Shown one piece after another: positions 2,962 to 40,661 of a stretch of 64,000 nucleotides of DNA. Origin of the DNA: Patescibacteria group bacterium (GTDB lineage Bacteria; Patescibacteriota; Minisyncoccia; Phycocordibacterales; Phycocordibacteraceae); NCBI GenBank assembly GCA_038064495.1, contig JBBTSZ010000002.1, forward strand, positions 216,934-280,933. The letters are read 5' to 3'. A program made the translations under genes and the position numbers. The notes beneath the pieces were generated by a model. The model worked only from the letters and a program-made list of their open reading frames with translations, did no database searches and was not told where the DNA came from. The first letter of the stretch is position 1; every line of letters starts with the position of its first letter.

Positions 2962-3909
2962 CTAGCGGGTCATGAGCCACTGGTAAATATCTTCCAAAGC
3001 CTTCACTGCATCTCCCGCAGCAATATTGTTTTGATGATAGAGCTCGTCGGTACAATCACCTGCAGCCCAGATGCCCGCAATGCTCGTGTGTTGGTTCTTT
3101 GGATCGGTAACGACACGGCCGACACTATCAAGTTCAAGGAAGTCTTTCGCAAAGTCAGTGTTTGGCATCACACCAATTTCTACGAACACACCTTCTACCG
3201 CGAGTGTGGTTTCAACACCTGAGTCGCGGTGCTTCACTTTGAGACCTGTTACAAACTTCTCACCGAGCACCTCGGTTGGCTCACTCTTATAGATAACCTT
3301 GAAGTTTGGATTCTTGGTAAGACGCTCCACCGTAATTTCGTCCCCTTTGAGTGCATCATGACGATGGATGAGCGTAACGCTCTTACAGTAGGCAAGGAGC
3401 TGAGCGGCCGTTTCTAGACCTGCGTTCCCGCCACCTACGACTGCGACATCAAGATCTGCATAGAGAGGTCCATCACAGGAAGCACAATAGGTGACTCCTT
3501 TGTTTTCAAATACGTCAGCACCCGGAATAGCGAGCTTCCTGCGAGCGGCACCAGAAGCAACAAGGACGGAACGTGCAGAAAGGACTTTCCCATCACGAGT
3601 GGTGACTTTAAAAGCACCGTTATCCTTCTCTAGTTTTTCCACTCGGTCACCTTCTACAACTTCTACAATCTCTCCTTTATATGCCTCAAGGTGTGTCTTG
3701 AAGGAATGAGCGAGCTCACTCCCGGGGATTTTAATCGTACCAATCCAGTTTTCAATTCCTTCTGATACGGTGGACTGTCCACCGATTTCTTCTGCTATTA
3801 AAACAGACTTGAGACGCTTACGCGCAGCGTAGACACCGGCGGACACACCCGCGGGTCCTCCGCCAATAATGATGAGGTCATGCATAGTCTCCCGAGTATA
3901 CCAAAACAC
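2962..3909 (-). CDS. trxB: thioredoxin-disulfide reductase
   Basis: GGGPAGVSAG FAD motif, CASC redox dicysteine, VVGGGNAGLE NAD motif. Confidence 0.9.
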   Translation of the reverse strand: MFWYTRETMHDLIIIGGGPAGVSAGVYAARKRLKSVLIAEEIGGQSTVSEGIENWIGTIKIPGSELAHSFKTHLEAYKGEIVEVVEGDRVEKLEKDNGAFKVTTRDGKVLSARSVLVASGAARRKLAIPGADVFENKGVTYCASCDGPLYADLDVAVVGGGNAGLETAAQLLAYCKSVTLIHRHDALKGDEITVERLTKNPNFKVIYKSEPTEVLGEKFVTGLKVKHRDSGVETTLAVEGVFVEIGVMPNTDFAKDFLELDSVGRVVTDPKNQHTSIAGIWAAGDCTDELYHQNNIAAGDAVKALEDIYQWLMTR

Positions 3910-18720: not shown

Positions 18721-18725
18721 ATAAC

Positions 18726-18757
18726 GGGCCGCCACTACCGGCGGCCCGTGTTATTTT
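18726..18757 (+). terminator. hairpin GGGCCGCC-acta-CGGCGGCCC plus TGTTATTTTT
   Basis: Perfect stem plus T tract just after the 18720 stop. Confidence 0.7.
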
Positions 18758-18765
18758 TACAGTAT

Positions 18766-18882
18766 GCATCCCGTTAGAAATCGCGGACGCTCATCTACAT
18801 ACAACATGATCGACATTTATAGAACTAATCGAGTGGGGTACGGAGGCACGAAGCTGTCCGCGTCCTATTTCTAACGGGATGC
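18766..18882. other. 117-nt element closed by a 16-bp perfect long-range inverted repeat (GCATCCCGTTAGAAAT ... ATTTCTAACGGGATGC) with an inner 7-bp helix; overlaps the annotated start of the downstream methyltransferase
   Basis: Seen in the sequence; a candidate structured RNA or cis-regulatory element. Confidence 0.4.
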
Positions 18883-19421
18883 ACCTTGCAGATCTCTTTA
18901 GTAATCCGACAAAAAACGTACTACAGATGGGGCTCACTGAAGGTATGAAAGTCGGAGACTTAGGCGCAGGTTCTGGACACTATGCGCTTGCCGCTGCACA
19001 TCTTGTGGGGCCATCCGGTCGTGTCTACGCGCTTGATGTCCAAGAAGATATCTTGAAGCACATCCGGGACGCGGCAAAAGAAAAAAAGCTACAGAATATT
19101 GAGACTATCTGGGGCGATTTCCAGTATCCAGGCGGTACGCGTCTTACCGATCATATTCTTGATGCGGTTATATTATCTAATACCCTGTTTCAAGTAGAAG
19201 AAAAACAAACGGCAGTTGCTGAAATGAGACGGATATTGAAACCGGGTGGCAAGGTGCTCGTATGTGACTGGGCCGGAAGTTACAGTGGTATGGGTCCGCA
19301 TCCCGAACACATTGTGTCAGAACATGATGCCGAAGAATTGTTCATCACGGCTGGTTTTCATAAGACGAAAACGTGGCGTGGCGGCCCACATCATTACGCA
19401 ATACTATTTATGTCTCCCTAA
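18879..19421 (+). CDS. class I SAM-dependent methyltransferase (start uncertain; alternative Met at 18927)
   Basis: Motif I VGDLGAGSGHYAL, post-I acidic ALDVQ, LKPGGKVLVCDW. Confidence 0.7.
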   Translation: MHLADLFSNPTKNVLQMGLTEGMKVGDLGAGSGHYALAAAHLVGPSGRVYALDVQEDILKHIRDAAKEKKLQNIETIWGDFQYPGGTRLTDHILDAVILSNTLFQVEEKQTAVAEMRRILKPGGKVLVCDWAGSYSGMGPHPEHIVSEHDAEELFITAGFHKTKTWRGGPHHYAILFMSP

Positions 19422-19448: not shown

Positions 19449-20747
19449 ATGAAGCCCTTTCAAATAATCACCATTTCTGTCTTCGCTCTGCTCGCGCTTG
19501 TGGGCCTCTTTCTCTTTGCCACCTTTAAAGGATTCGGCGGAGCAAAACCACTCGGAAATGTGATGATATGGGGAACACTCTCCGCTGATGCACTGCAGCC
19601 AGCACTCAACGAACTGAAACGAAATCACAAAGAGTTTGATAAGGTCGCTTATCTTGAACGAAACGAGAGCACGTTTGATGCTGACCTTGCCGAAGCAATT
19701 GCTTCAGGTACGGGTCCCGATATGATTATCATTACGCAGGAACAACTAACGGCAGAAATACCAAAGCTGTCCATTATTCCCTACGCTACGATTCCAGAGC
19801 GCACCTATCGCGATACCTACGTACCTATATATGAACTCTTCCTGGATCGTAATGGTACGTTTGGTGTTCCATTTGTCGTTGACCCGCTCGTCCTCTATTA
19901 CAACCGCACCCTACTCGCAAGTGGTGGTCTTGCACAACCACCAACAACCTGGGAAGCAGTCGTCGGACTCGCTCCCACGTTAACGAGAAAGAGTGATACC
20001 GGAGTCGTGAGCAGAAGCACCGTTGCTTTTGGCACGTATGAGAACATTCCAAACGCCAGAGCCATTATTTCCTTGCTTCTACTGCAATCGGGAAGTCAAA
20101 TAACCACCTACGGCACGCTCGGCATCACCGGCGCACTTGCTTCGGGTGGCTCTTCCGCTGCTTACAGCCTTTCTCCAGCTGAGTCAGCCGTCAGTTTCTA
20201 CACCCAGTTCGCTGATCCCGCTAAGGTGGTCTACTCGTGGAACCGCTCTCTCCCAAGCGCTCGCCAAGCATTCACTTCAGGGGACTCCGTGTTCTATGTG
20301 GGATTTGCCTCTGAAGCAGCCTTACTCAAAGCGACAAACCCAAATCTAGACTTTGATATGGCTCCGGTGCCTCAGCCTCAGACCGCACAAACAAAGACCG
20401 ACTATGGACTCGCCTATGCGTTCGCCATTCCAAAAGCCGCCAGTAATCCTGACGGTGCGTACAAGACCGCCCAGGCCTTAACGGCGAAGGATGAACTCTA
20501 CATTATTGCCGGATCGCTTGGCATGGCCCCTGCAAAGCGTGCCTTTCTGACGCCACAAACAAACGATATTTTTGCTTCGGTGTATTACCCAATGGCGATT
20601 ATAGCGAAAGGATGGCTGTCCCCAACGCCAGGCGTAACCGACGCAATTTTCACTGCTATGATTACGGATGTGATAAGCGGTCGCTCAAACGTGCATGATG
20701 CCATTAAGCGGGCAGATGATGCGCTCTCCGCCGCGTTTTCTCACTAA
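19449..20747 (+). CDS. extracellular solute-binding protein family-1-like lipoprotein/secreted protein; no cognate ABC permease or ATPase nearby
   Basis: N-terminal TM/signal, then SBP-like fold hints (MIWGTLSAD..., VPFVVDPLVLYYN). Confidence 0.5.
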   Translation: MKPFQIITISVFALLALVGLFLFATFKGFGGAKPLGNVMIWGTLSADALQPALNELKRNHKEFDKVAYLERNESTFDADLAEAIASGTGPDMIIITQEQLTAEIPKLSIIPYATIPERTYRDTYVPIYELFLDRNGTFGVPFVVDPLVLYYNRTLLASGGLAQPPTTWEAVVGLAPTLTRKSDTGVVSRSTVAFGTYENIPNARAIISLLLLQSGSQITTYGTLGITGALASGGSSAAYSLSPAESAVSFYTQFADPAKVVYSWNRSLPSARQAFTSGDSVFYVGFASEAALLKATNPNLDFDMAPVPQPQTAQTKTDYGLAYAFAIPKAASNPDGAYKTAQALTAKDELYIIAGSLGMAPAKRAFLTPQTNDIFASVYYPMAIIAKGWLSPTPGVTDAIFTAMITDVISGRSNVHDAIKRADDALSAAFSH

Positions 20748-20750
20748 ACT

Positions 20751-21266
20751 ATGCAAATTAAATGGCAAGAAGCCACCTCACTCATTCCACTTTTGCTCTT
20801 AGGTTTATGTAGCTTTACGTTTTCGGCTCAGGCTGCGGCAACAATTCCAGGCGTAATCTTTGAGAATGATCCTCCAGCGAAGACAACGGTTCTTCTGCCG
20901 TCTGCATCAACTCCCGCACCAACAAAACCAGCTACGCCAGGTGCAACTGGAGCCACTTCTCCGGGCGCGGCAACTGGCCAGACATCAACTCAGTCTGGTT
21001 CGCCAACAGGTCTCCAAAATCCGCTTCAGGCAGGAACACTTGAAGAGCTTCTTACTGCGATTCTTAAGGGCGTTGTAGCGATTGGTGCCATATTCCTTAC
21101 CTTTATGATTATCTATGTCGGCTTCCTCTTTGTAGCTGCGCGCGGGAACGAAGAAAAAATACGTGATGCGCGTCAAGCACTTGTCTGGACCGTGATTGGA
21201 GGACTCCTTTTGCTTGGTGCTGAAGCCATAAGTCTGGTCATTCAGTCTACGGCGCAAACGTTATGA
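20751..21266 (+). CDS. pilin-like paralogue P1: signal peptide, Pro/Thr/Ala-rich linker, two TM helices (VirB2/TrbC-like topology)
   Basis: Signal peptide plus the conserved two-TM module shared with the next four ORFs (..F..GF..V...GNEEK.R....L.W..IG). Confidence 0.55.
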   Translation: MQIKWQEATSLIPLLLLGLCSFTFSAQAAATIPGVIFENDPPAKTTVLLPSASTPAPTKPATPGATGATSPGAATGQTSTQSGSPTGLQNPLQAGTLEELLTAILKGVVAIGAIFLTFMIIYVGFLFVAARGNEEKIRDARQALVWTVIGGLLLLGAEAISLVIQSTAQTL

Positions 21267-21589
21267 GCCCCTTCACAAGACTGTTTTCGCTGCTTCCCGC
21301 ATTTCTGTTCGTACTCATTCCACTGCACAGCGCTTTTGCGGCAACTCCCACGTTTGAAGAGTGGGTAAATAACACTGCAGTTGGATTCGTTGATTCCTAT
21401 GTGATACCGCTCCTCTACGCAGTTGCGTTCCTTGTTTTTATGTTCGGTGCCTTTCGCTACTTCTTTACCGGCGGGGAGGAAAACAGGGAAAAGGGACGTG
21501 CTTTTCTCCTTTGGTCCATTATCGGCATGGTCGCAATATTTTCCGTGTGGGGCGTCGTGAATCTACTCCTTACTGCTCTTCCGCAGTAA
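21263..21589 (+). CDS. pilin-like paralogue P2
   Basis: AFLVFMFGAFRYFFTGGEENREKGRAFLLWSIIGMVAIFSVWGVVNLL module; signal peptide; 4-nt overlap with P1. Confidence 0.6.
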   Translation: MSPFTRLFSLLPAFLFVLIPLHSAFAATPTFEEWVNNTAVGFVDSYVIPLLYAVAFLVFMFGAFRYFFTGGEENREKGRAFLLWSIIGMVAIFSVWGVVNLLLTALPQ

Positions 21590-21638
21590 CGTGTATAACT
21601 GCTTGATTCACGCCAAGCGCTTGCTAGGCTTCATCTAT

Positions 21639-22319
21639 ATGACACATTTCCGTACCCTACTCACCGGCATTTCAGCTGTGGCGCTTCTGTTTATCGTTAA
21701 CGTTCCGCATGCCCTTGCACAAACAGCAACCAATAGCTCAGCACCCATAGACCAGCTGGGTCAATTCTTACAACAGTTCATTCGCTTTTTTGACCTCTAT
21801 CTGGTCCCGCTCATATTTGCACTCGCCTTCATCGTGTTCTTGTGGGGCGTCTATCGGTACCTCATTCTTGGTGCTGACAACGAGGAGAAACGTCAGGAGG
21901 GTCAAAAGTTCATCATGTATGGCCTTATCGGTTTCTTCATCATGATTTCAATTTGGGGGATTGTTAATTTACTTGTCGGTTCGCTTGGTTTCGGAAATGA
22001 TCAGCGTCCCAATCTTCCGACCTTCGGTTCACCCTCTCAATCAGGAAGTAACGGTTCAAAGATTCTTCCAAGCAGTCCGTCAGTAAACACGACTGGATCT
22101 GCCAATACGAGCGGAGGTTCTGTTACCCCGGGAAACACGTCTACAGACTGTCGTTCTGACGGTGTGTGTCCTGCTAACACCGTTTGTTCGTTTAGCGGTA
22201 CGCAAGCAGGGCAATGTATAACCACGAACCCTCAAGATTGTCGTCTTCCGAACACAGCCTGTCCTTCAGGATACGTGTGTAACGCAAACAATGGTCTCTG
22301 TAAATTGAATTCAATATAG
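21639..22319 (+). CDS. pilin-like paralogue P3 with a C-terminal Ser/Thr/Gly linker and an 8-Cys extracellular domain
   Basis: Module AFIVFLWGVYRYLILGADNEEKRQEGQKFIMYGLIGFFIMISIWGIVNLL, then CRSDGVCPANTVCSFSGTQAGQCITTNPQDCRLPNTACPSGYVCNANNGLC. Confidence 0.6.
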   Translation: MTHFRTLLTGISAVALLFIVNVPHALAQTATNSSAPIDQLGQFLQQFIRFFDLYLVPLIFALAFIVFLWGVYRYLILGADNEEKRQEGQKFIMYGLIGFFIMISIWGIVNLLVGSLGFGNDQRPNLPTFGSPSQSGSNGSKILPSSPSVNTTGSANTSGGSVTPGNTSTDCRSDGVCPANTVCSFSGTQAGQCITTNPQDCRLPNTACPSGYVCNANNGLCKLNSI

Positions 22320-22415: not shown

Positions 22416-22775
22416 ATGAAGAAACTCGGCTACACTCTCGCAGCTTTTGCCACGCCTTTTCTTGCGTTTGCACAGGTGCAAACCATTAATGACGCAGGTA
22501 GAATCGTGATTGATATCATTAACAATGTTGCGGTACCTATCGTATTCGCACTCGCCTTCATCGTCTTTATCTGGGGTATCTTTCGATACTTCGTTCAAGG
22601 AGGACACGACGAGGAAAAACGTGAAGACGGTAAGCAGCTCATGCTCTGGGGCCTCATTGGTTTCTTTGTCATGGTCTCGGTGTGGGGCTTAATCCACATC
22701 CTCATTGGAACCTTCAACTTGAACCCAGCTATTCCAAATTATCCAACCGCACCGTATACCACGAAAGGACGCTAG
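22416..22775 (+). CDS. pilin-like paralogue P4
   Basis: AFIVFIWGIFRYFVQGGHDEEKREDGKQLMLWGLIGFFVMVSVWGLIHIL; signal peptide ending AFA-QVQ. Confidence 0.6.
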   Translation: MKKLGYTLAAFATPFLAFAQVQTINDAGRIVIDIINNVAVPIVFALAFIVFIWGIFRYFVQGGHDEEKREDGKQLMLWGLIGFFVMVSVWGLIHILIGTFNLNPAIPNYPTAPYTTKGR

Positions 22776-22797
22776 TTTCCTATAGCACTCTCCTTGG

Positions 22798-22826
22798 AAA
22801 CCCGCGCAATCCTTGCGCGGGTTTCT
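22798..22826 (+). terminator. hairpin AAACCCGCGCAA-tcc-TTGCGCGGGTTT after P4
   Basis: Perfect 12-bp stem. Confidence 0.5.
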
Positions 22827-22841
22827 GCTATGATAGAGAGC

Positions 22842-23099
22842 ATGAATACAGAATTCAACGCATTTCTCGGTAAAGTTGAACAGGCTATTTTGAACCCACT
22901 CATCACGCTTTTGATACTGGCCGCGTTCGTGCTCTTTGTATATGGGGTCGTTGAATTCATTGCTGGAGCGGGAAATGATGAAAAAAGAAAGATAGGTCAG
23001 CAACATATGATATGGGGCTTCATTGGACTTGCCATTATGTTTGGTGCTAAAGGCATTGTGGCGCTTCTTGCAAGTACGTTTGGCGTTCCGGTCCCCTAG
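22842..23099 (+). CDS. pilin-like paralogue P5 (most divergent; no obvious cleavable signal)
   Basis: AAFVLFVYGVVEFIAGAGNDEKRKIGQQHMIWGFIGLAIMFG module. Confidence 0.5.
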   Translation: MNTEFNAFLGKVEQAILNPLITLLILAAFVLFVYGVVEFIAGAGNDEKRKIGQQHMIWGFIGLAIMFGAKGIVALLASTFGVPVP

Positions 23100-23156
23100 T
23101 ACATACAAAAAGGGTCCAATACGCGCGAGGCATACTGGACCCTTGAAAGGTACAAA

Positions 23157-34033: not shown

Positions 34034-34741
34034 ATGGAAACTGAACAAAACGAGCGCCAGGAACTGGAGCAGCTTTCTCGCGAACTTGTTGATGAGGCAG
34101 TGCTTGTTGAATACAAACAGACCTACGATAACTATCACATCTCGTTTATTCCGAGCATGCTTGGAGCCGTACTCGTGTTCTCCGGGAATCTAGTCTACGG
34201 AAAACGTCCTTCCTATATGAAGTTTCGTGCGGTGGAGGTTATCGCACGAGTTCCCTATCATTCATGGAGCTCAGCGGCATACACACTCCTCACCATGTTC
34301 TACAGCAACGAGCAGAAAGCACTGAAGCTGTCTGAAGTCTCGCAATTCTCACGCATTGCGCAGGATAACGAAACCATGCACGTGGTGGTCATTTCTAAAC
34401 TAGCCTGTCTGGAACACCGCGTGAATTTTTTCGTACACACCCTTATTCCGATGATTTTTGCGTTCTTCTACTTCTGGGCTTCCTACATTTTGTATTTGAT
34501 TAACCGAAAGTATTCACTTGAGCTCAATTATTGTTTTGAGCAACACGCGTTTGATCAATACAATCAGTTTCTGAAGGAGAACGAGGAAGCGCTCAAAGGG
34601 AAGCCGATAGAGAGTGAATTTCTTTCGTGGTACGGCAGAAATCCCACCAACCAGTACGATTTCTTTATGGGCGTCCGGAATGACGAAATCATCCATCGTA
34701 ATATGTCGGCGCATGTGCTTCAGGGTCTGAAGAAGAAGTAG
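34034..34741 (+). CDS. alternative-oxidase-like membrane-associated diiron carboxylate protein (AOX/PTOX family)
   Basis: Four spaced iron-ligand motifs: AVEVIARVP, QDNETMHVVV (E..H), LELNYCFEQHA (E..H), RNDEIIHRNMS (DE..H); hydrophobic mid-region. Confidence 0.55.
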   Translation: METEQNERQELEQLSRELVDEAVLVEYKQTYDNYHISFIPSMLGAVLVFSGNLVYGKRPSYMKFRAVEVIARVPYHSWSSAAYTLLTMFYSNEQKALKLSEVSQFSRIAQDNETMHVVVISKLACLEHRVNFFVHTLIPMIFAFFYFWASYILYLINRKYSLELNYCFEQHAFDQYNQFLKENEEALKGKPIESEFLSWYGRNPTNQYDFFMGVRNDEIIHRNMSAHVLQGLKKK

Positions 34742-36589: not shown

Positions 36590-37588
36590 ATGCGGAGATA
36601 TCTCCTTCCAGCGCTCCTTGCGCTCTGTATAGTGTTTCTGCCGAGTATTGCGTCAGCAGAGTCTAATGCAGGAATCTTCGCGCCAGTCATTTCTGACGTC
36701 TGCACGTGTCCAGGCACTGCTCCTGGTTTTGGATGCATTCTAGACACCATACAGAACCTTCTTAACCTCGGCGTCTCACTTTCAGCGATGCTTGCGGTGC
36801 TCATCATTGCCTACGCAGGTACCCTTCTCATCTTTAACCCAACCAAACCGGAGTACCGGACACAAGCGAAAGGCATGCTCGCGAATGTTGCCATAGGCAT
36901 GGTCATCGTACTCGCCTCCTGGCTCATCGTTGATTTTGTGATGAAGATTGTCTACAACCCCGGTGCGGTATTTTCGGGAAATGTTATTGGACCTTGGAAC
37001 GATATTCTTGGTGGTGGCGAGGCCTGTATTGTTGCTCAACAACTCGACACCATCTTTGATGGAAATCTAGTGACGACGCCGACGACCGATGTGGCTGCAA
37101 GTGGAGGTGTACTCACCAACTCTGGAAAAGGAGCTTGTAATGCAATAACGGTTGCACAAAGTGCCGCCGCAGGTGGAGCACGCATGTCCACACAGGAGGC
37201 GAACATTCTTGCCTGCGTGGCAGGTCCGGAAAGCCAATGTGGTGCAGTGTTACAAAACTATAATTGGAACGGCGCAAAAAGCTATCCACCTTCAACCGCG
37301 TACGGGCCCTTTCAGATTACACTCAAAGGAAACAGCGGCTGTTTTGAGAATGCAGCTTGCTATCAAGCCGCCGGTGTTAGTGGATCGCTAAACTGTGATG
37401 CAGCGTTTGATTCAAAAGGCTATGCAATTCCCGGTGCCAGGCTTGAACAGTGCAAGCGTGCCGCCGCGAACCTCACGTGTAGTTCGGTTGCTGCAGATTG
37501 TGTATATCGTAAGCAAGGTGCAAGTGCGTGGACAGCTGATAAAAGTAGTTCAAAGCAACAGGCGTGCATCTCTGGTAATGGAGGCTAA
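36590..37588 (+). CDS. pilin-like N-terminal module (signal peptide, CxCPG...GC, two TM helices) fused to a Cys-rich C-terminal domain with a possible lysozyme/lytic-transglycosylase-like motif
   Basis: The N-domain is paralogous to that of the 38156..39100 ORF. The C-domain has ...QEANILACVAGPESQCGAV...STAYGPFQI (E-S ... A.G..Q resembles the SLT/lysozyme-like signature). Confidence 0.5.
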   Translation: MRRYLLPALLALCIVFLPSIASAESNAGIFAPVISDVCTCPGTAPGFGCILDTIQNLLNLGVSLSAMLAVLIIAYAGTLLIFNPTKPEYRTQAKGMLANVAIGMVIVLASWLIVDFVMKIVYNPGAVFSGNVIGPWNDILGGGEACIVAQQLDTIFDGNLVTTPTTDVAASGGVLTNSGKGACNAITVAQSAAAGGARMSTQEANILACVAGPESQCGAVLQNYNWNGAKSYPPSTAYGPFQITLKGNSGCFENAACYQAAGVSGSLNCDAAFDSKGYAIPGARLEQCKRAAANLTCSSVAADCVYRKQGASAWTADKSSSKQQACISGNGG

Positions 37589-37597
37589 ACTACAACT

Positions 37598-38152
37598 ATG
37601 AAAAAGGCGCTCATCATCATTTCAGTCATACTCGTGCTTTTGCTTGTTGCCGGACTTGGTTACTATTTCTATACCCATACAAAGACCCCACAGGCGCCTG
37701 ATAGTACAAATACATTTCCGATCGGTGATATGAATCAAGGAGGTAGTTCAACCATGGTAATACCTGCTGAGGATGGAGGTAGCATCTCCACATTGGATTT
37801 CATACATAACAACGTCACGTTTGAAGATCCTGCGAATAAGGGCGACTACTATCTTGCCGGAAGTAATGACATTTGTAATCCAGACGGTACCTGTCCAAAA
37901 GCAGGCACGTCTACCCATTTCAATATTCTGTATTTCTCAGACTCTGGTTCTTTCGTCATAAGTCTTAATGAAGAACCACTTGGTCAGATTCGCAGAGAAG
38001 CAGAAGAGTATCTCATACAAACGCTTGGTATAACGCAAGAGCAAATGTGTAAACTAAACTACACCATCGGTACGACGTCATACATCAACGACACATTTGG
38101 AGGTGAGAATTTAGGATTCAGTTTCTGTCCCGGAGCAGTGAAGCTCCCTTAG
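37598..38152 (+). CDS. membrane-anchored secreted hypothetical protein
   Basis: N-terminal TM; 9-nt spacing after the previous gene; sits between two paralogous fusion genes. Confidence 0.4.
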   Translation: MKKALIIISVILVLLLVAGLGYYFYTHTKTPQAPDSTNTFPIGDMNQGGSSTMVIPAEDGGSISTLDFIHNNVTFEDPANKGDYYLAGSNDICNPDGTCPKAGTSTHFNILYFSDSGSFVISLNEEPLGQIRREAEEYLIQTLGITQEQMCKLNYTIGTTSYINDTFGGENLGFSFCPGAVKLP

Positions 38153-38155
38153 ACT

Positions 38156-39100
38156 ATGTGTAGATTCCTCATCCCACTTCTCGTCACGGTCTTCCTCATA
38201 GGAATACCACTCATGGCACAGGCTGCCGATACCAGTTTCTTTGGCCCTATCGTTCCGACACAATGTAATTGTCCGGGTGAAGCCCCGGGTCTTGGCTGCA
38301 TTCTTGAAAGCCTCCGGCTTTTGATGAACCTCATCATTTCCATCGCCTGTGTGTTCCTTACGCTCATCATTGCGTACGGTGGCCTCCTTTTCATGATGGG
38401 TGCGACGAACCCCTCGCAACGCGAGACCGGTAGGAACGTGCTCATCAACGGTTTCATCGGTATTGTCATCGTCTTGTCGGCCTGGCTCCTGGTTGATTTC
38501 ATTATGAAGCGTCTGTATAACTCAAACTCTTTCGGACCGTGGAACTCTATTTTGCTCGGTCAAGGAGAGCTCTGTCTGCATAAACAACAAACCGGAGAAA
38601 TATTTACTGGAAATATTGTAGTAACTCCAACCACAAACCCTGGTTCTGCGGGTGGGGCAGGTGGAAGTGGTGGGAGTGGTGCAAATTGTCCTGCCGCTGA
38701 CCCTGGAAGCATGGTTAACTTTCCAGCTTCAGCAACCTCAGGTGCGGCCGAGAAGGCAACTCCTACAACCGTGCAGAATTTCCTTGCCATGCGAGCTGCT
38801 GCACTTAAAGAAGGTATTGATTTAAAAGTAACGGATGGATATCGATCTGAGTCCGAACAAATAGCTCTGTGGGATAGATATGGGCACGACACCAGCCAGG
38901 CAGCTCGACCTTGTACGCTCGGAGGTGGTGGGTCAAATCACAACTCTGGAACGGCGGTTGACCTGACCGTCGGTTGTGCCAAGACGGATAGTTCGTGCAA
39001 CAGTCCACAGTACCGCTGGTTGAAGGCAAATGGTTCCAAGTGGAATTTTAGAAACGCACTTCCAACTGATACGGTGCACTGGTCGCCAAGTGGTACCTAA
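38156..39100 (+). CDS. pilin-like N-terminal module fused to an M15/VanY-type D,D-peptidase (LAS metallopeptidase) domain
   Basis: The N-domain shares CNCPGEAPGLGCILESL...IIAYGG...GIVIVLSAWLLVDFIMK..YN...FGPWN with the 36590 ORF. The C-domain has SNHNSGTAVDL (SxHxxGxAxD) and TVHWSPSG, preceded by a Gly-rich linker. Confidence 0.6.
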   Translation: MCRFLIPLLVTVFLIGIPLMAQAADTSFFGPIVPTQCNCPGEAPGLGCILESLRLLMNLIISIACVFLTLIIAYGGLLFMMGATNPSQRETGRNVLINGFIGIVIVLSAWLLVDFIMKRLYNSNSFGPWNSILLGQGELCLHKQQTGEIFTGNIVVTPTTNPGSAGGAGGSGGSGANCPAADPGSMVNFPASATSGAAEKATPTTVQNFLAMRAAALKEGIDLKVTDGYRSESEQIALWDRYGHDTSQAARPCTLGGGGSNHNSGTAVDLTVGCAKTDSSCNSPQYRWLKANGSKWNFRNALPTDTVHWSPSGT

Positions 39101-39995: not shown

Positions 39996-40661
39996 ATGAA
40001 CAAAAACAGCCAGAAAAGCAATTATTGCGAAGCGTGCGGAGATTTCCATGATGCCGGACACGACGGAGCCTCCTTTGTACAGATCGGGGAAGTCATTCCA
40101 GACTACGAGTTTGAAATCTTCCATAAGGACGACCAAAAGACGGTAAAGTTTTCTGACTATCGCGGCAAATGGCTCGTGGTGATGTTTTATCCGGGCGACT
40201 TCACCTTTGTGTGTCCAACGGAGCTTGAGGATATGGCAAAGCTCTATCCGAAGTTTCAAGAAATGAATACGGAAGTACTCTCTTTTTCTACGGACACGGT
40301 CTACGTACACAAGGCGTGGCATGACACTTCTGCCGCTATCAAACAGGTGAACTATCCAATGGGTTCAGACCCGTCTGGTAAGATTTCCTTTGCCTTCGGT
40401 ACGCTTATTGAAGGAGGAGATATGGCGCATACACCAGATGAAGGCCAGTCTCGACGCGGCACATTTGTTATTGACCCCTCGGGAGTGCTTCGTACGATAG
40501 AAATTCATGACAATAGCATTGGGCGGCGCGCAGGCGAAACACTTCGCAAGGTACAGGCAGCGCAGTACGTGGAGGCCCATCCAGGTAATGTCTGCCCGGC
40601 AAGTTGGGAGGAAGGCGACGACACACTGGAACCGGGCATGGATCTTGTAGGTAAGATTTAG
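39996..40661 (+). CDS. peroxiredoxin (AhpC/TSA family) with an N-terminal Cys/His-rich extension
   Basis: FTFVCPTE peroxidatic-Cys motif; WLVVMFYPGDF. Confidence 0.8.
   Translation: MNKNSQKSNYCEACGDFHDAGHDGASFVQIGEVIPDYEFEIFHKDDQKTVKFSDYRGKWLVVMFYPGDFTFVCPTELEDMAKLYPKFQEMNTEVLSFSTDTVYVHKAWHDTSAAIKQVNYPMGSDPSGKISFAFGTLIEGGDMAHTPDEGQSRRGTFVIDPSGVLRTIEIHDNSIGRRAGETLRKVQAAQYVEAHPGNVCPASWEEGDDTLEPGMDLVGKI

Follow-up and report, generated by a model that had tools for sequence, protein, structure and literature searches.

The product of P3, the third gene in a conserved tandem array of five conjugation-type (VirB2-like) pilin genes (P1-P5), carries a cysteine-rich C-terminal tail. The array lies in a 64,000-nucleotide stretch (the window) of contig JBBTSZ010000002.1 (assembly GCA_038064495.1) from an ultra-small groundwater bacterium of the Patescibacteria. 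Judged by its repeat pattern, the tail is two tandem four-cysteine (4-Cys) units and not a single 8-Cys domain, and the position occupied by P3 is, from the array comparison, the site at which tails vary most across species. The most likely role proposed for this tail, with about even confidence, is that a flexible linker displays two hairpin modules, each stapled by disulfides, outside the cytoplasm for contact or recognition at the most variable position of the array.

In P3, a predicted signal peptide is followed by a T4SS_pilin core of two helices, which a Ser/Gly/Thr/Asn/Pro linker connects to a tail of 58 aa (TDCRSDGVCPANTVCSFSGTQAGQCITTNPQDCRLPNTACPSGYVCNANNGLCKLNSI, residues 169-226). 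All eight cysteines (positions 171, 177, 183, 193, 201, 208, 214 and 221) are located in the tail and none in residues 1-168; at the cysteine frequency of the window (0.54% over 25 housekeeping open reading frames, ORFs), the probability of at least eight in 58 aa is about 1e-9. The 53 aa between the end of the second transmembrane segment (TM2) and the tail comprise S12 G9 T7 N6 P6. An earlier note on this DNA, made from the letters alone, had described a pilin-like paralogue with a conserved two-TM core, a Ser/Thr/Gly/Asn-rich linker and an 8-Cys C-terminal stretch, and this description was borne out in each part: residues 54-112 match PF18895 (T4SS_pilin, T4SS standing for type IV secretion system) at 39.4 bits against the Pfam cut-off of 26.6, and the same family is found in the four neighboring ORFs and in two fusion proteins of the window. 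The NCBI protein P0001, recorded as 'MAG: pilin [Patescibacteria group bacterium]' (MAG, metagenome-assembled genome), is 100% identical to P3, and the identical protein is present in an ENA assembly with the sample label Hain_H41. A longer alternative ORF begins with GTG at 21591; the NCBI record has the 226-aa form.

P3 possesses the pilin architecture of a signal peptide and a pair of hydrophobic helices with a short charged loop between them. Its hydropathy profile gives a signal-peptide-like segment (residues 4-27) and two long hydrophobic segments (46-79 and 90-119), and in the AlphaFold2 (AF2) model, made with 91 homologues, the blocks over residues 41-110 form two helices with mean predicted local distance difference test (pLDDT) values of 87-93. 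The predicted signal peptide rests on the first hydrophobic segment, an AF2 helix over residues 2-20 and an AxA motif read from the sequence, and cleavage would occur after A-L-A, before Q28. Following removal of the signal peptide, the two helices would span the membrane with the charged loop GADNEEKRQEGQK on the inside, so that both termini of P3, and with them the entire C-terminal extension, would lie outside the cytoplasm. P1, P2 and P5 also match TrbC/VirB2 (PF04956) weakly. Solved pilus subunits gave no significant match to P3, either by fold in Foldseek or by sequence in a profile search of the PDB, in which the family profile returned a single chance-level match (FliL, E = 0.14). Beyond TM2 lies the motif R-P-x-L-P-T-F-G, which is nearly invariant across the family (among 91 homologues, P124 is invariant and P127 and F129 are kept in more than 90%) and is a candidate processing site, subunit contact or membrane exit. 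A sortase LPXTG signal was rejected for this motif, which resembles LPXTG but differs from it, follows TM2 and has no C-terminal TM segment after it.

Three orthologues (P0002, P0003 and P0005) are 45-52% identical to P3 in BLASTP local alignments, and two of them have been placed on contigs (loci L003 and L004), where each stands third among the pilin genes and the gene order is that of the P3 locus. All three retain the eight cysteines, the C-terminus L-x-S-I and the stop position, and 30 of the 60 positions in the tail alignment of the four proteins are invariant. Identity to P3 amounts to 57-64% in the tail, 46-63% in the core and 26-37% in the linker; the tail codons give a pN (nonsynonymous) of 0.29 against a pS (synonymous) of 0.78-0.90, at which synonymous sites are saturated. 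On this codon-level comparison, the tail is to be read as a real coding domain under purifying selection. With a low-complexity stretch directly before it, the tail could have been an artefact of read-through or annotation, and the earlier note had named poor conservation or frame disruption in relatives as the signs of read-through; neither was seen in the three orthologues, and the artefact was rejected because the tail is conserved and in frame, its stop position is common to the orthologues and pN is far below pS. The C-terminal end itself is conserved regardless of tail content: it is L-x-S-I in the P3 clade, and L-x-G-L-Y/H ends 13 of 120 homologues (for example P0006, P0023, P0037, P0051, P0057 and P0072) against an internal frequency of about 0.0005. 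This conservation suggests that the end may be a terminal recognition or docking motif.

The two halves of the tail, DCRSDGVCPANTVCSFSGTQAGQC and DCRLPNTACPSGYVCNANNGLC, form an internal repeat (p = 0.003 in composition shuffles, p = 0.017 with the cysteines fixed). A profile of the 4-Cys unit, obtained from 58 single units, has the consensus GDCSSDSQCPSGYTCNPSTGTCVP with the spacing C-x5-C-x5-C-x6-C, and the corresponding hidden Markov model (HMM) matches P3 twice (E 4.5e-13) and no other real ORF of the window. Among the 120 best homologues, the tails possess 0 (24 proteins), 2 (34), 4 (43), 8 (11), 12 (2) or 16 (1) cysteines, the unit is found in zero, one, two, three or more copies, and the number of tail cysteines is even in 117, which is the signature of paired disulfides. 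AF2 runs on the full-length protein and on the tail alone both gave one beta-hairpin per unit, with the third and fourth cysteines on opposite strands. The cysteines of P3 are spaced 5, 5, 9, 7, 6, 5 and 6 (5, 5, 9 in the first unit and 6, 5, 6 in the second), with no CC doublet. Four is also the usual number of cysteine ligands in a zinc site; zinc-ribbon-like metal binding was nevertheless rejected, because the units lack CxxC knuckles, are spaced as given above and have a predicted extracytoplasmic location. Metal binding and the artefact considered above share a very low probability.

The earlier note had taken the tail for a knottin-like 8-Cys domain of the kind found in small binding or toxin modules, and this interpretation has to be given up in view of the internal repeat, the double match of the unit HMM and the 43 of 120 homologue tails with exactly four cysteines. 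A unit that is found alone with four cysteines cannot be a three-disulfide cystine knot, and the evolutionary unit is therefore short of the six or more cysteines and three disulfides of a knottin. Spacing, profile and fold agree in this: there is no CC, Toxin_12 reaches E = 4.2, and the Foldseek matches to inhibitor cystine knots span 17-27 residues at E > 2.9.

Classification of the tail among known disulfide-rich domains, which the note had put forward as a check, returned knottin, toxin, chitin-binding and granulin profiles all below cut-off in Pfam and NCBIfam (searched at E <= 10), and no Foldseek match in the PDB below E = 0.8 for the full-length or tail-only model. The scores on P3 were 17.0 bits for Lustrin_cystein (cut-off 27), 16.7 for Granulin PF00396 (20.9), whose 12-Cys CC-doublet pattern is not present, 13.7 for the Myxococcus Cys-rich repeat Myxo_Cys_RPT (TIGR04201; 25), 13.3 for CBM_1 (20.6), 12.6 for Dickkopf_N (25), 12.5 for DUF7107 (24.6) and 8.5 for Toxin_12 (21); hevein and CBM14 profiles were not listed at E <= 10, and Inhibitor_I36 and Antistasin appeared as further sub-threshold toxin or inhibitor profiles. 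The best Foldseek match was granulin C for the full model (E = 0.88) and had E = 1.5 for the tail-only model; Dkk4 and pairs of epidermal growth factor (EGF) domains were other non-significant top matches, a CBM14 structure matched once (E = 6.1 over 21 residues), and the spider-toxin matches span 17-27 residues. The three-unit tail of locus L034 reaches 30.7 bits for the EB module when summed (cut-off 24.3), with no single domain passing. The P3 tail resembles granulin, EGF-like, EB module, Dickkopf_N, Lustrin Cys-rich and TIGR04201 domains in cysteine spacing and G-x-C signatures; it differs from them in scoring below every cut-off and in having neither granulin CC doublets nor a six-Cys EGF or knottin unit, and these families are mostly eukaryotic. 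The most fitting description is that of a generic hairpin stapled by disulfides, of a kind with granulin, EGF or EB modules but outside any curated family.

A word-index homology search with the 60-aa tail alone gave no candidate. An exhaustive HMMER search with the four-orthologue tail profile against 1.84 billion representatives gave six matches at E <= 1e-3. No pilin was among them; all six are repeat proteins of eukaryote-, virus- or phage-like character, in which it is mainly unit 2 that matches. The cluster of the query itself was missing from the output, which indicates limited sensitivity for modules so short. Two proteins of eukaryotic or giant-virus type by eye (P0124 and P0125) have several unit-2-like DCRxxxC..G..C..TGLC repeats followed by a conserved C-terminal transmembrane domain, and these repeats are either convergent or a very widespread simple module.

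These searches bear on a further explanation, according to which cleavage would free the tail as a disulfide-rich peptide (a toxin, bacteriocin or signal), with the core as its export carrier. The toxin-like first impression and the weak matches to Toxin_12, Inhibitor_I36 and Antistasin would fit such a peptide, as would the near-invariant RPxLPTFG between TM2 and the linker and the C-terminal processing known for the TrbC and TrhA pilins (PMC11722321). No profile reaches its cut-off, however, and no fold match is significant; there is no conserved cleavage motif beside the tail, the linker being the least conserved part, and the genes flanking the array show no evident candidate for immunity or processing. 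Moreover, many orthologous positions are tailless or have tails of hundreds of residues, unlike a dedicated precursor, and release of the tail is accordingly held to be improbable.

A scan of one genome per species yielded 79 loci, which together with L003 and L004 make up the 81 loci analyzed; the arrays contain four to six co-directional pilin ORFs, most often five. Position-wise comparison was based on the 71 species-level arrays with at least four pilin ORFs, with a long tail defined as at least 25 aa. Because P3 and P4 are close paralogues, assignment to P1-P5 by best BLAST hit is unreliable, and array position was used instead, although extra small terminal ORFs move the position index by one in some arrays. 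Only the middle paralogue or paralogues have long tails; of the 142 genes that occupy the last two positions, none has one. At the middle, a long tail is present in about 40 of the 71 arrays, with at least two cysteines in about 35 and at least four in about 26. The longest tails belong to L070 (367 aa, 28 Cys), L025 (349 aa, 26 Cys) and L050 (297 aa, 28 Cys), and long tails are composed of 4-Cys units, 2-Cys loops and short helical 2-Cys elements; in 9 of 10 long-tailed middle pilins examined, Pfam detects the pilin core alone. In some loci, cysteine modules lie between the signal peptide and the first helix (L072:7350-8231, 12 Cys; L077:3290-4021, 6 Cys; L082:7130-7804, 8 Cys), and occurrence at either terminus is expected if the N- and C-termini are both directed outward and exposure is what the modules serve. 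The swapping of domains among relatives, which the earlier note had suggested looking for, is found at the middle position, where cysteine modules are gained, lost, multiplied and exchanged across species, as expected of a surface-exposed specificity determinant.

The same distribution allows for a purely structural or regulatory role in assembly, in which the tail, as a bulky and rigid cap at the C-terminus, would mark an initiating, terminating or base subunit or form intermolecular disulfide cross-links without any external ligand. The restriction of extensions to one fixed position, and to a single paralogue or a pair in each array, and an extreme C-terminal motif conserved whatever the tail content could be explained in this way. 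About 31 of the 71 arrays, on the other hand, have no tail of at least 25 aa at this position, which indicates that it is not generally needed for assembly; the even cysteine counts per tail favor intramolecular pairing, and tails that differ so widely in length and in number of copies are rather what is seen in regions exposed at the surface. A role confined to assembly is therefore given a low probability, similar to that of a released peptide.

In the proposed mechanism, the Ser/Gly/Thr/Asn linker, flexible and possibly glycosylated, would carry the two tandem 4-Cys mini-modules, each a beta-hairpin that is most likely stapled by two disulfides. The modules would be kept off the membrane or, if the subunit polymerizes as conjugative pilins do, off the surface of the filament. 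They could then resist proteases and serve to contact or recognize a ligand of the host or of a cell envelope.

Several points weigh against this proposal. To our knowledge, no filament has been demonstrated for any VirB2-like protein of the Patescibacteria. The predicted tail models are of moderate confidence (mean pLDDT per 10-residue block of 72-85 in the full-length run and 55-74, overall 63, in the tail-only run). No ligand, binding-domain homology or disulfide-forming enzyme was identified in the window. An association with T4SS machinery was also looked for, and neither VirB4 nor any other T4SS gene is present within the 64 kb; the four ORFs of at least 600 aa are GyrA, ClpB, RelA/SpoT and TopA, which leaves no VirB4-like ATPase and no link to a secretion machine in the window. 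Furthermore, some conjugative pilins lose C-terminal residues (PMC11722321), and the tail of P3 might likewise be removed. The last of these points comes from a conserved protein family with a member encoded further downstream, in which the hairpin is joined to a VanY peptidase; such a fusion is no less compatible with simple anchoring in the membrane than with a polymerizing pilin.

The earlier note had pointed to Cys-rich and hydrolase fusions at 36.6-39.1 kb, and both proteins indeed have a PF18895 core, followed in the second by a VanY domain. This two-domain architecture of pilin and VanY is found in about 80 protein clusters with identity down to 34%, and the homologue P0029 has peptidoglycan-binding domains (PF01471 and PF09374, precomputed) and a 4-Cys unit at its end. 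This lineage has put the VirB2-like hairpin to repeated use for carrying domains outside the cytoplasm, a cell-wall peptidase among them. The display platform for extracellular effector domains seen by the note consequently holds in outline, with the VanY fusions, P0029 and the N-terminal modules of other loci in its favor, while the word 'effector' is unsupported. For the C-terminal domain of the first fusion protein, Pfam and PDB sequence searches gave no match, and a guess of a lytic transglycosylase was dropped for want of support in both. Both fusion proteins have an N-terminal C-x-C-P-G-x-A-P-G-x-G-C motif before the first helix, and between their genes lies a 184-aa ORF (37598-38152) with a hydrophobic N-terminus and no Pfam match.

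Since a peptidase on a hairpin resembles a membrane-anchored enzyme, an anchor rather than a pilus was retained as the main rival. In this explanation, the T4SS_pilin hairpin does not polymerize, and the cysteine modules act at the envelope of the producer, for example on the cell wall, the S-layer or the co-encoded solute-binding protein as a partner. The anchoring of VanY in about 80 clusters, the PG_binding domains of P0029, the absence of a T4SS ATPase from the window and the linkage of the array to a solute-binding protein gene (73 of 81 loci) all speak for it. Five divergent hairpin paralogues in fixed order are, in contrast, hard to account for as mere anchors, and most of the paralogues (P2, P4 and P5) have nothing to anchor; in Southlakia epibionticum, moreover, the pilin series lies within an essential T4SS cluster (PMC10633639). 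The anchor is considered less probable than extracytoplasmic display for contact or recognition, though well above the other alternatives.

A functional analogy is offered by a variable, disulfide-stabilized C-terminal element of another filament subunit: the D-region of type IV pilins is surface-exposed and can mediate receptor binding. It belongs to an unrelated family and machine, and consists of one disulfide loop in a globular head instead of tandem linker-borne modules. C-terminal epitope fusions engineered on F-pilin were reportedly displayed on pili by Rondot et al. in 1998 and would be a laboratory analogue of the P3 tail. TraA (F), VirB2 (T-pilus), TrbC (RP4) and TrhA (H-pilus) share with P3 a signal peptide and a helix-loop-helix hairpin; P3 differs in its conserved extension of about 100 aa past TM2 and in the lack of a significant sequence or fold match to solved pilins. 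Mature conjugative pilins have about 65-75 aa with no appended folded domain, and some are cyclized (PMC11722321). Structures of conjugative pili place the loop between the helices toward the lumen and the two termini side by side (PMC11722321). Tandem VirB2 paralogues of the T4SS loci of Bartonella and Anaplasma have diverged and are thought to vary the surface or host interaction (as summarized in PMC12102498). These diderm animal pathogens have sequence variation in place of added disulfide-rich modules.

VirB2-like pilins (PF18895/PF04956) have been reported from 1,948 Patescibacteria assemblies, with 441 arrays of 2-11 genes at a mean identity of 25% that were suggested to aid adaptation to different host strains; a pilin is near virB4 in only 1135 of the 1948 assemblies (PMC12102498, Quinonero-Coronel et al. 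2025). Such arrays are widespread in the phylum, and one is essential in S. epibionticum (PMC12102498, PMC10633639, PMC12857230), where the series is part of the T4SS cluster (Wang et al. 2023 Cell), in contrast to the array of the window with its surroundings of 64 kb free of T4SS genes. The present array resembles the published ones in Pfam family, phylum and the tandem arrangement of sequence-divergent genes, of which there are five. Patescibacteria VirB2-like arrays as such are thus already published. In the parts of these accounts reached by term searches, terminal Cys-rich modules, a position-specific variable tail or a methyltransferase-solute-binding protein-pilin block by gyrA are not mentioned, and a full-text literature search for cysteine-rich or disulfide features of VirB2 proteins or pilins in Patescibacteria found no paper, although its coverage is incomplete and the result is absence of evidence only; within the literature searched, then, the variable disulfide-rich tail goes unmentioned.

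Much of the diversity of bacteria is accounted for by Patescibacteria, which apparently live on the cells of hosts to which they attach. Genetic tests in a single species have shown its T4SS genes and pilin array to be essential, and the role of the Patescibacteria T4SS has been described as completely unknown (PMC11665869). If one paralogue of the array bears an exposed, variable and disulfide-stabilized element, it would be a concrete candidate for host contact or specificity, and P3 would be a specific candidate for the exposed, specificity-bearing part of this otherwise opaque apparatus. In the most far-reaching version, which is speculative and rather unlikely, the middle gene of a deeply conserved operon of the Patescibacteria (solute-binding protein plus five VirB2-like pilins) would encode a host-recognition subunit that is modular, rich in disulfides and quick to evolve, displayed on the cell surface or on a T4SS-type pilus of a monoderm; were it true, the tail repertoire (0-28 Cys, at either terminus) would be a determinant of the hosts to which an epibiont can attach, readable from sequence. 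The P3 tail is small enough for expression and mapping, and tails can be compared with co-occurring hosts across metagenomes. The analysis also corrects a tempting misreading of the tail as a knottin or toxin.

The tightly packed pilin array is preceded by a methyltransferase-like gene and a solute-binding protein gene (Table 1), with which it constitutes an operon-like block next to gyrA. This block is chromosomal rather than a mobile T4SS island, and about 70 species have it conserved. The solute-binding protein gene, whose product has an N-terminus that is hydrophobic by eye, stops 3 nt before the start codon of P1, and terminator-like hairpins bracket the block at 18724-18749, before the methyltransferase, and at 23110-23144, after P5; a promoter scan gave a signal no higher than the shuffled expectation. 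Upstream of the array, the solute-binding protein is present in 73, the methyltransferase in 70 and gyrA in 60 of the 81 loci, the remainder being mostly short contigs, and a P1 homologue is present in 75. The solute-binding protein may be linked in function to the pilins; its gene has no ABC permease gene as a visible neighbor. The low-complexity P/T/G/S-rich extension of P1 is at the mature N-terminus and not at the C-terminus.

Table 1. Coordinates in the window of the P3 gene and its parts, the surrounding block and the pilin-core fusions
Feature	Coordinates	Strand	Details
SAM-dependent methyltransferase-like gene, first of block	18879..19421	+	Methyltransf_11/25/31 and UbiE Pfam matches precomputed for the identical L001 gene
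Solute-binding protein SBP_bac_1/SBP_bac_8	19449..20747	+	PF01547 E 8.6e-18, PF13416 E 6.9e-17
P1	20751..21266	+	PF18895 35.7 bits
P2, 108 aa, no tail	21263..21589	+	PF18895 39.9 bits; start overlaps P1 stop by 4 nt
P3, third pilin paralogue	21639..22319	+	ATG start, 226 aa, stop codon 22317-22319
P3 predicted signal peptide	21639..21719	+	residues 1-27, A-L-A end before Q28
P3 two-helix hairpin core	21744..21983	+	AF2 helices 36-76 and 82-115; short charged loop GADNEEKRQEGQK
P3 post-TM2 motif R-P-x-L-P-T-F-G	22005..22028	+	residues 123-130
P3 low-complexity linker	22029..22142	+	residues 131-168, predicted disordered, pLDDT <50 at 137-167
P3 Cys unit 1 DCRSDGVCPANTVCSFSGTQAGQC	22146..22217	+	residues 170-193; predicted beta-hairpin, Cys183/Cys193 on opposite strands
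P3 Cys unit 2 DCRLPNTACPSGYVCNANNGLC	22236..22301	+	residues 200-221; predicted beta-hairpin, Cys214/Cys221 on opposite strands
P3 extreme C-terminus L-N-S-I	22305..22316	+	L, S and I invariant in four orthologues
P4, 119 aa, short tail	22416..22775	+	PF18895 44.9 bits
P5, 101 aa from TTG (85 aa in public records)	22794..23099	+	PF18895 31.6 bits
T4SS_pilin core + Cys-rich ~160-aa C-terminal domain	36590..37588	+	PF18895 42.9 bits
T4SS_pilin core + VanY (M15) D-Ala-D-Ala carboxypeptidase	38156..39100	+	PF18895 39.2 bits, PF02557 54.1 bits

The window is core chromosome, encoding, among others, FtsA, FtsZ, S1, GyrA, alanine racemase, IF-2, ClpB, ParB, RelA/SpoT, TopA, DprA and SerRS. It also contains an alternative-oxidase-like ORF (34034-34741; PF01786, E 1.9e-8), a peroxiredoxin-like ORF near it (39996-40661, by eye) and, elsewhere, a thioredoxin-reductase-like ORF (2962-3909; Pyr_redox_2), and these ORFs may relate to oxygen tolerance in this Patescibacteria genome. 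Among the loci compared, L006, L007, L009 and many other MAGs are titled 'uncultured Candidatus Saccharibacteria' and yet are fully syntenic with, and 75-89% identical in GyrA to, records that bear the names Paceibacterota, Kaiserbacteria or Parcubacteria; as taxonomic labels, the record titles are probably unreliable.

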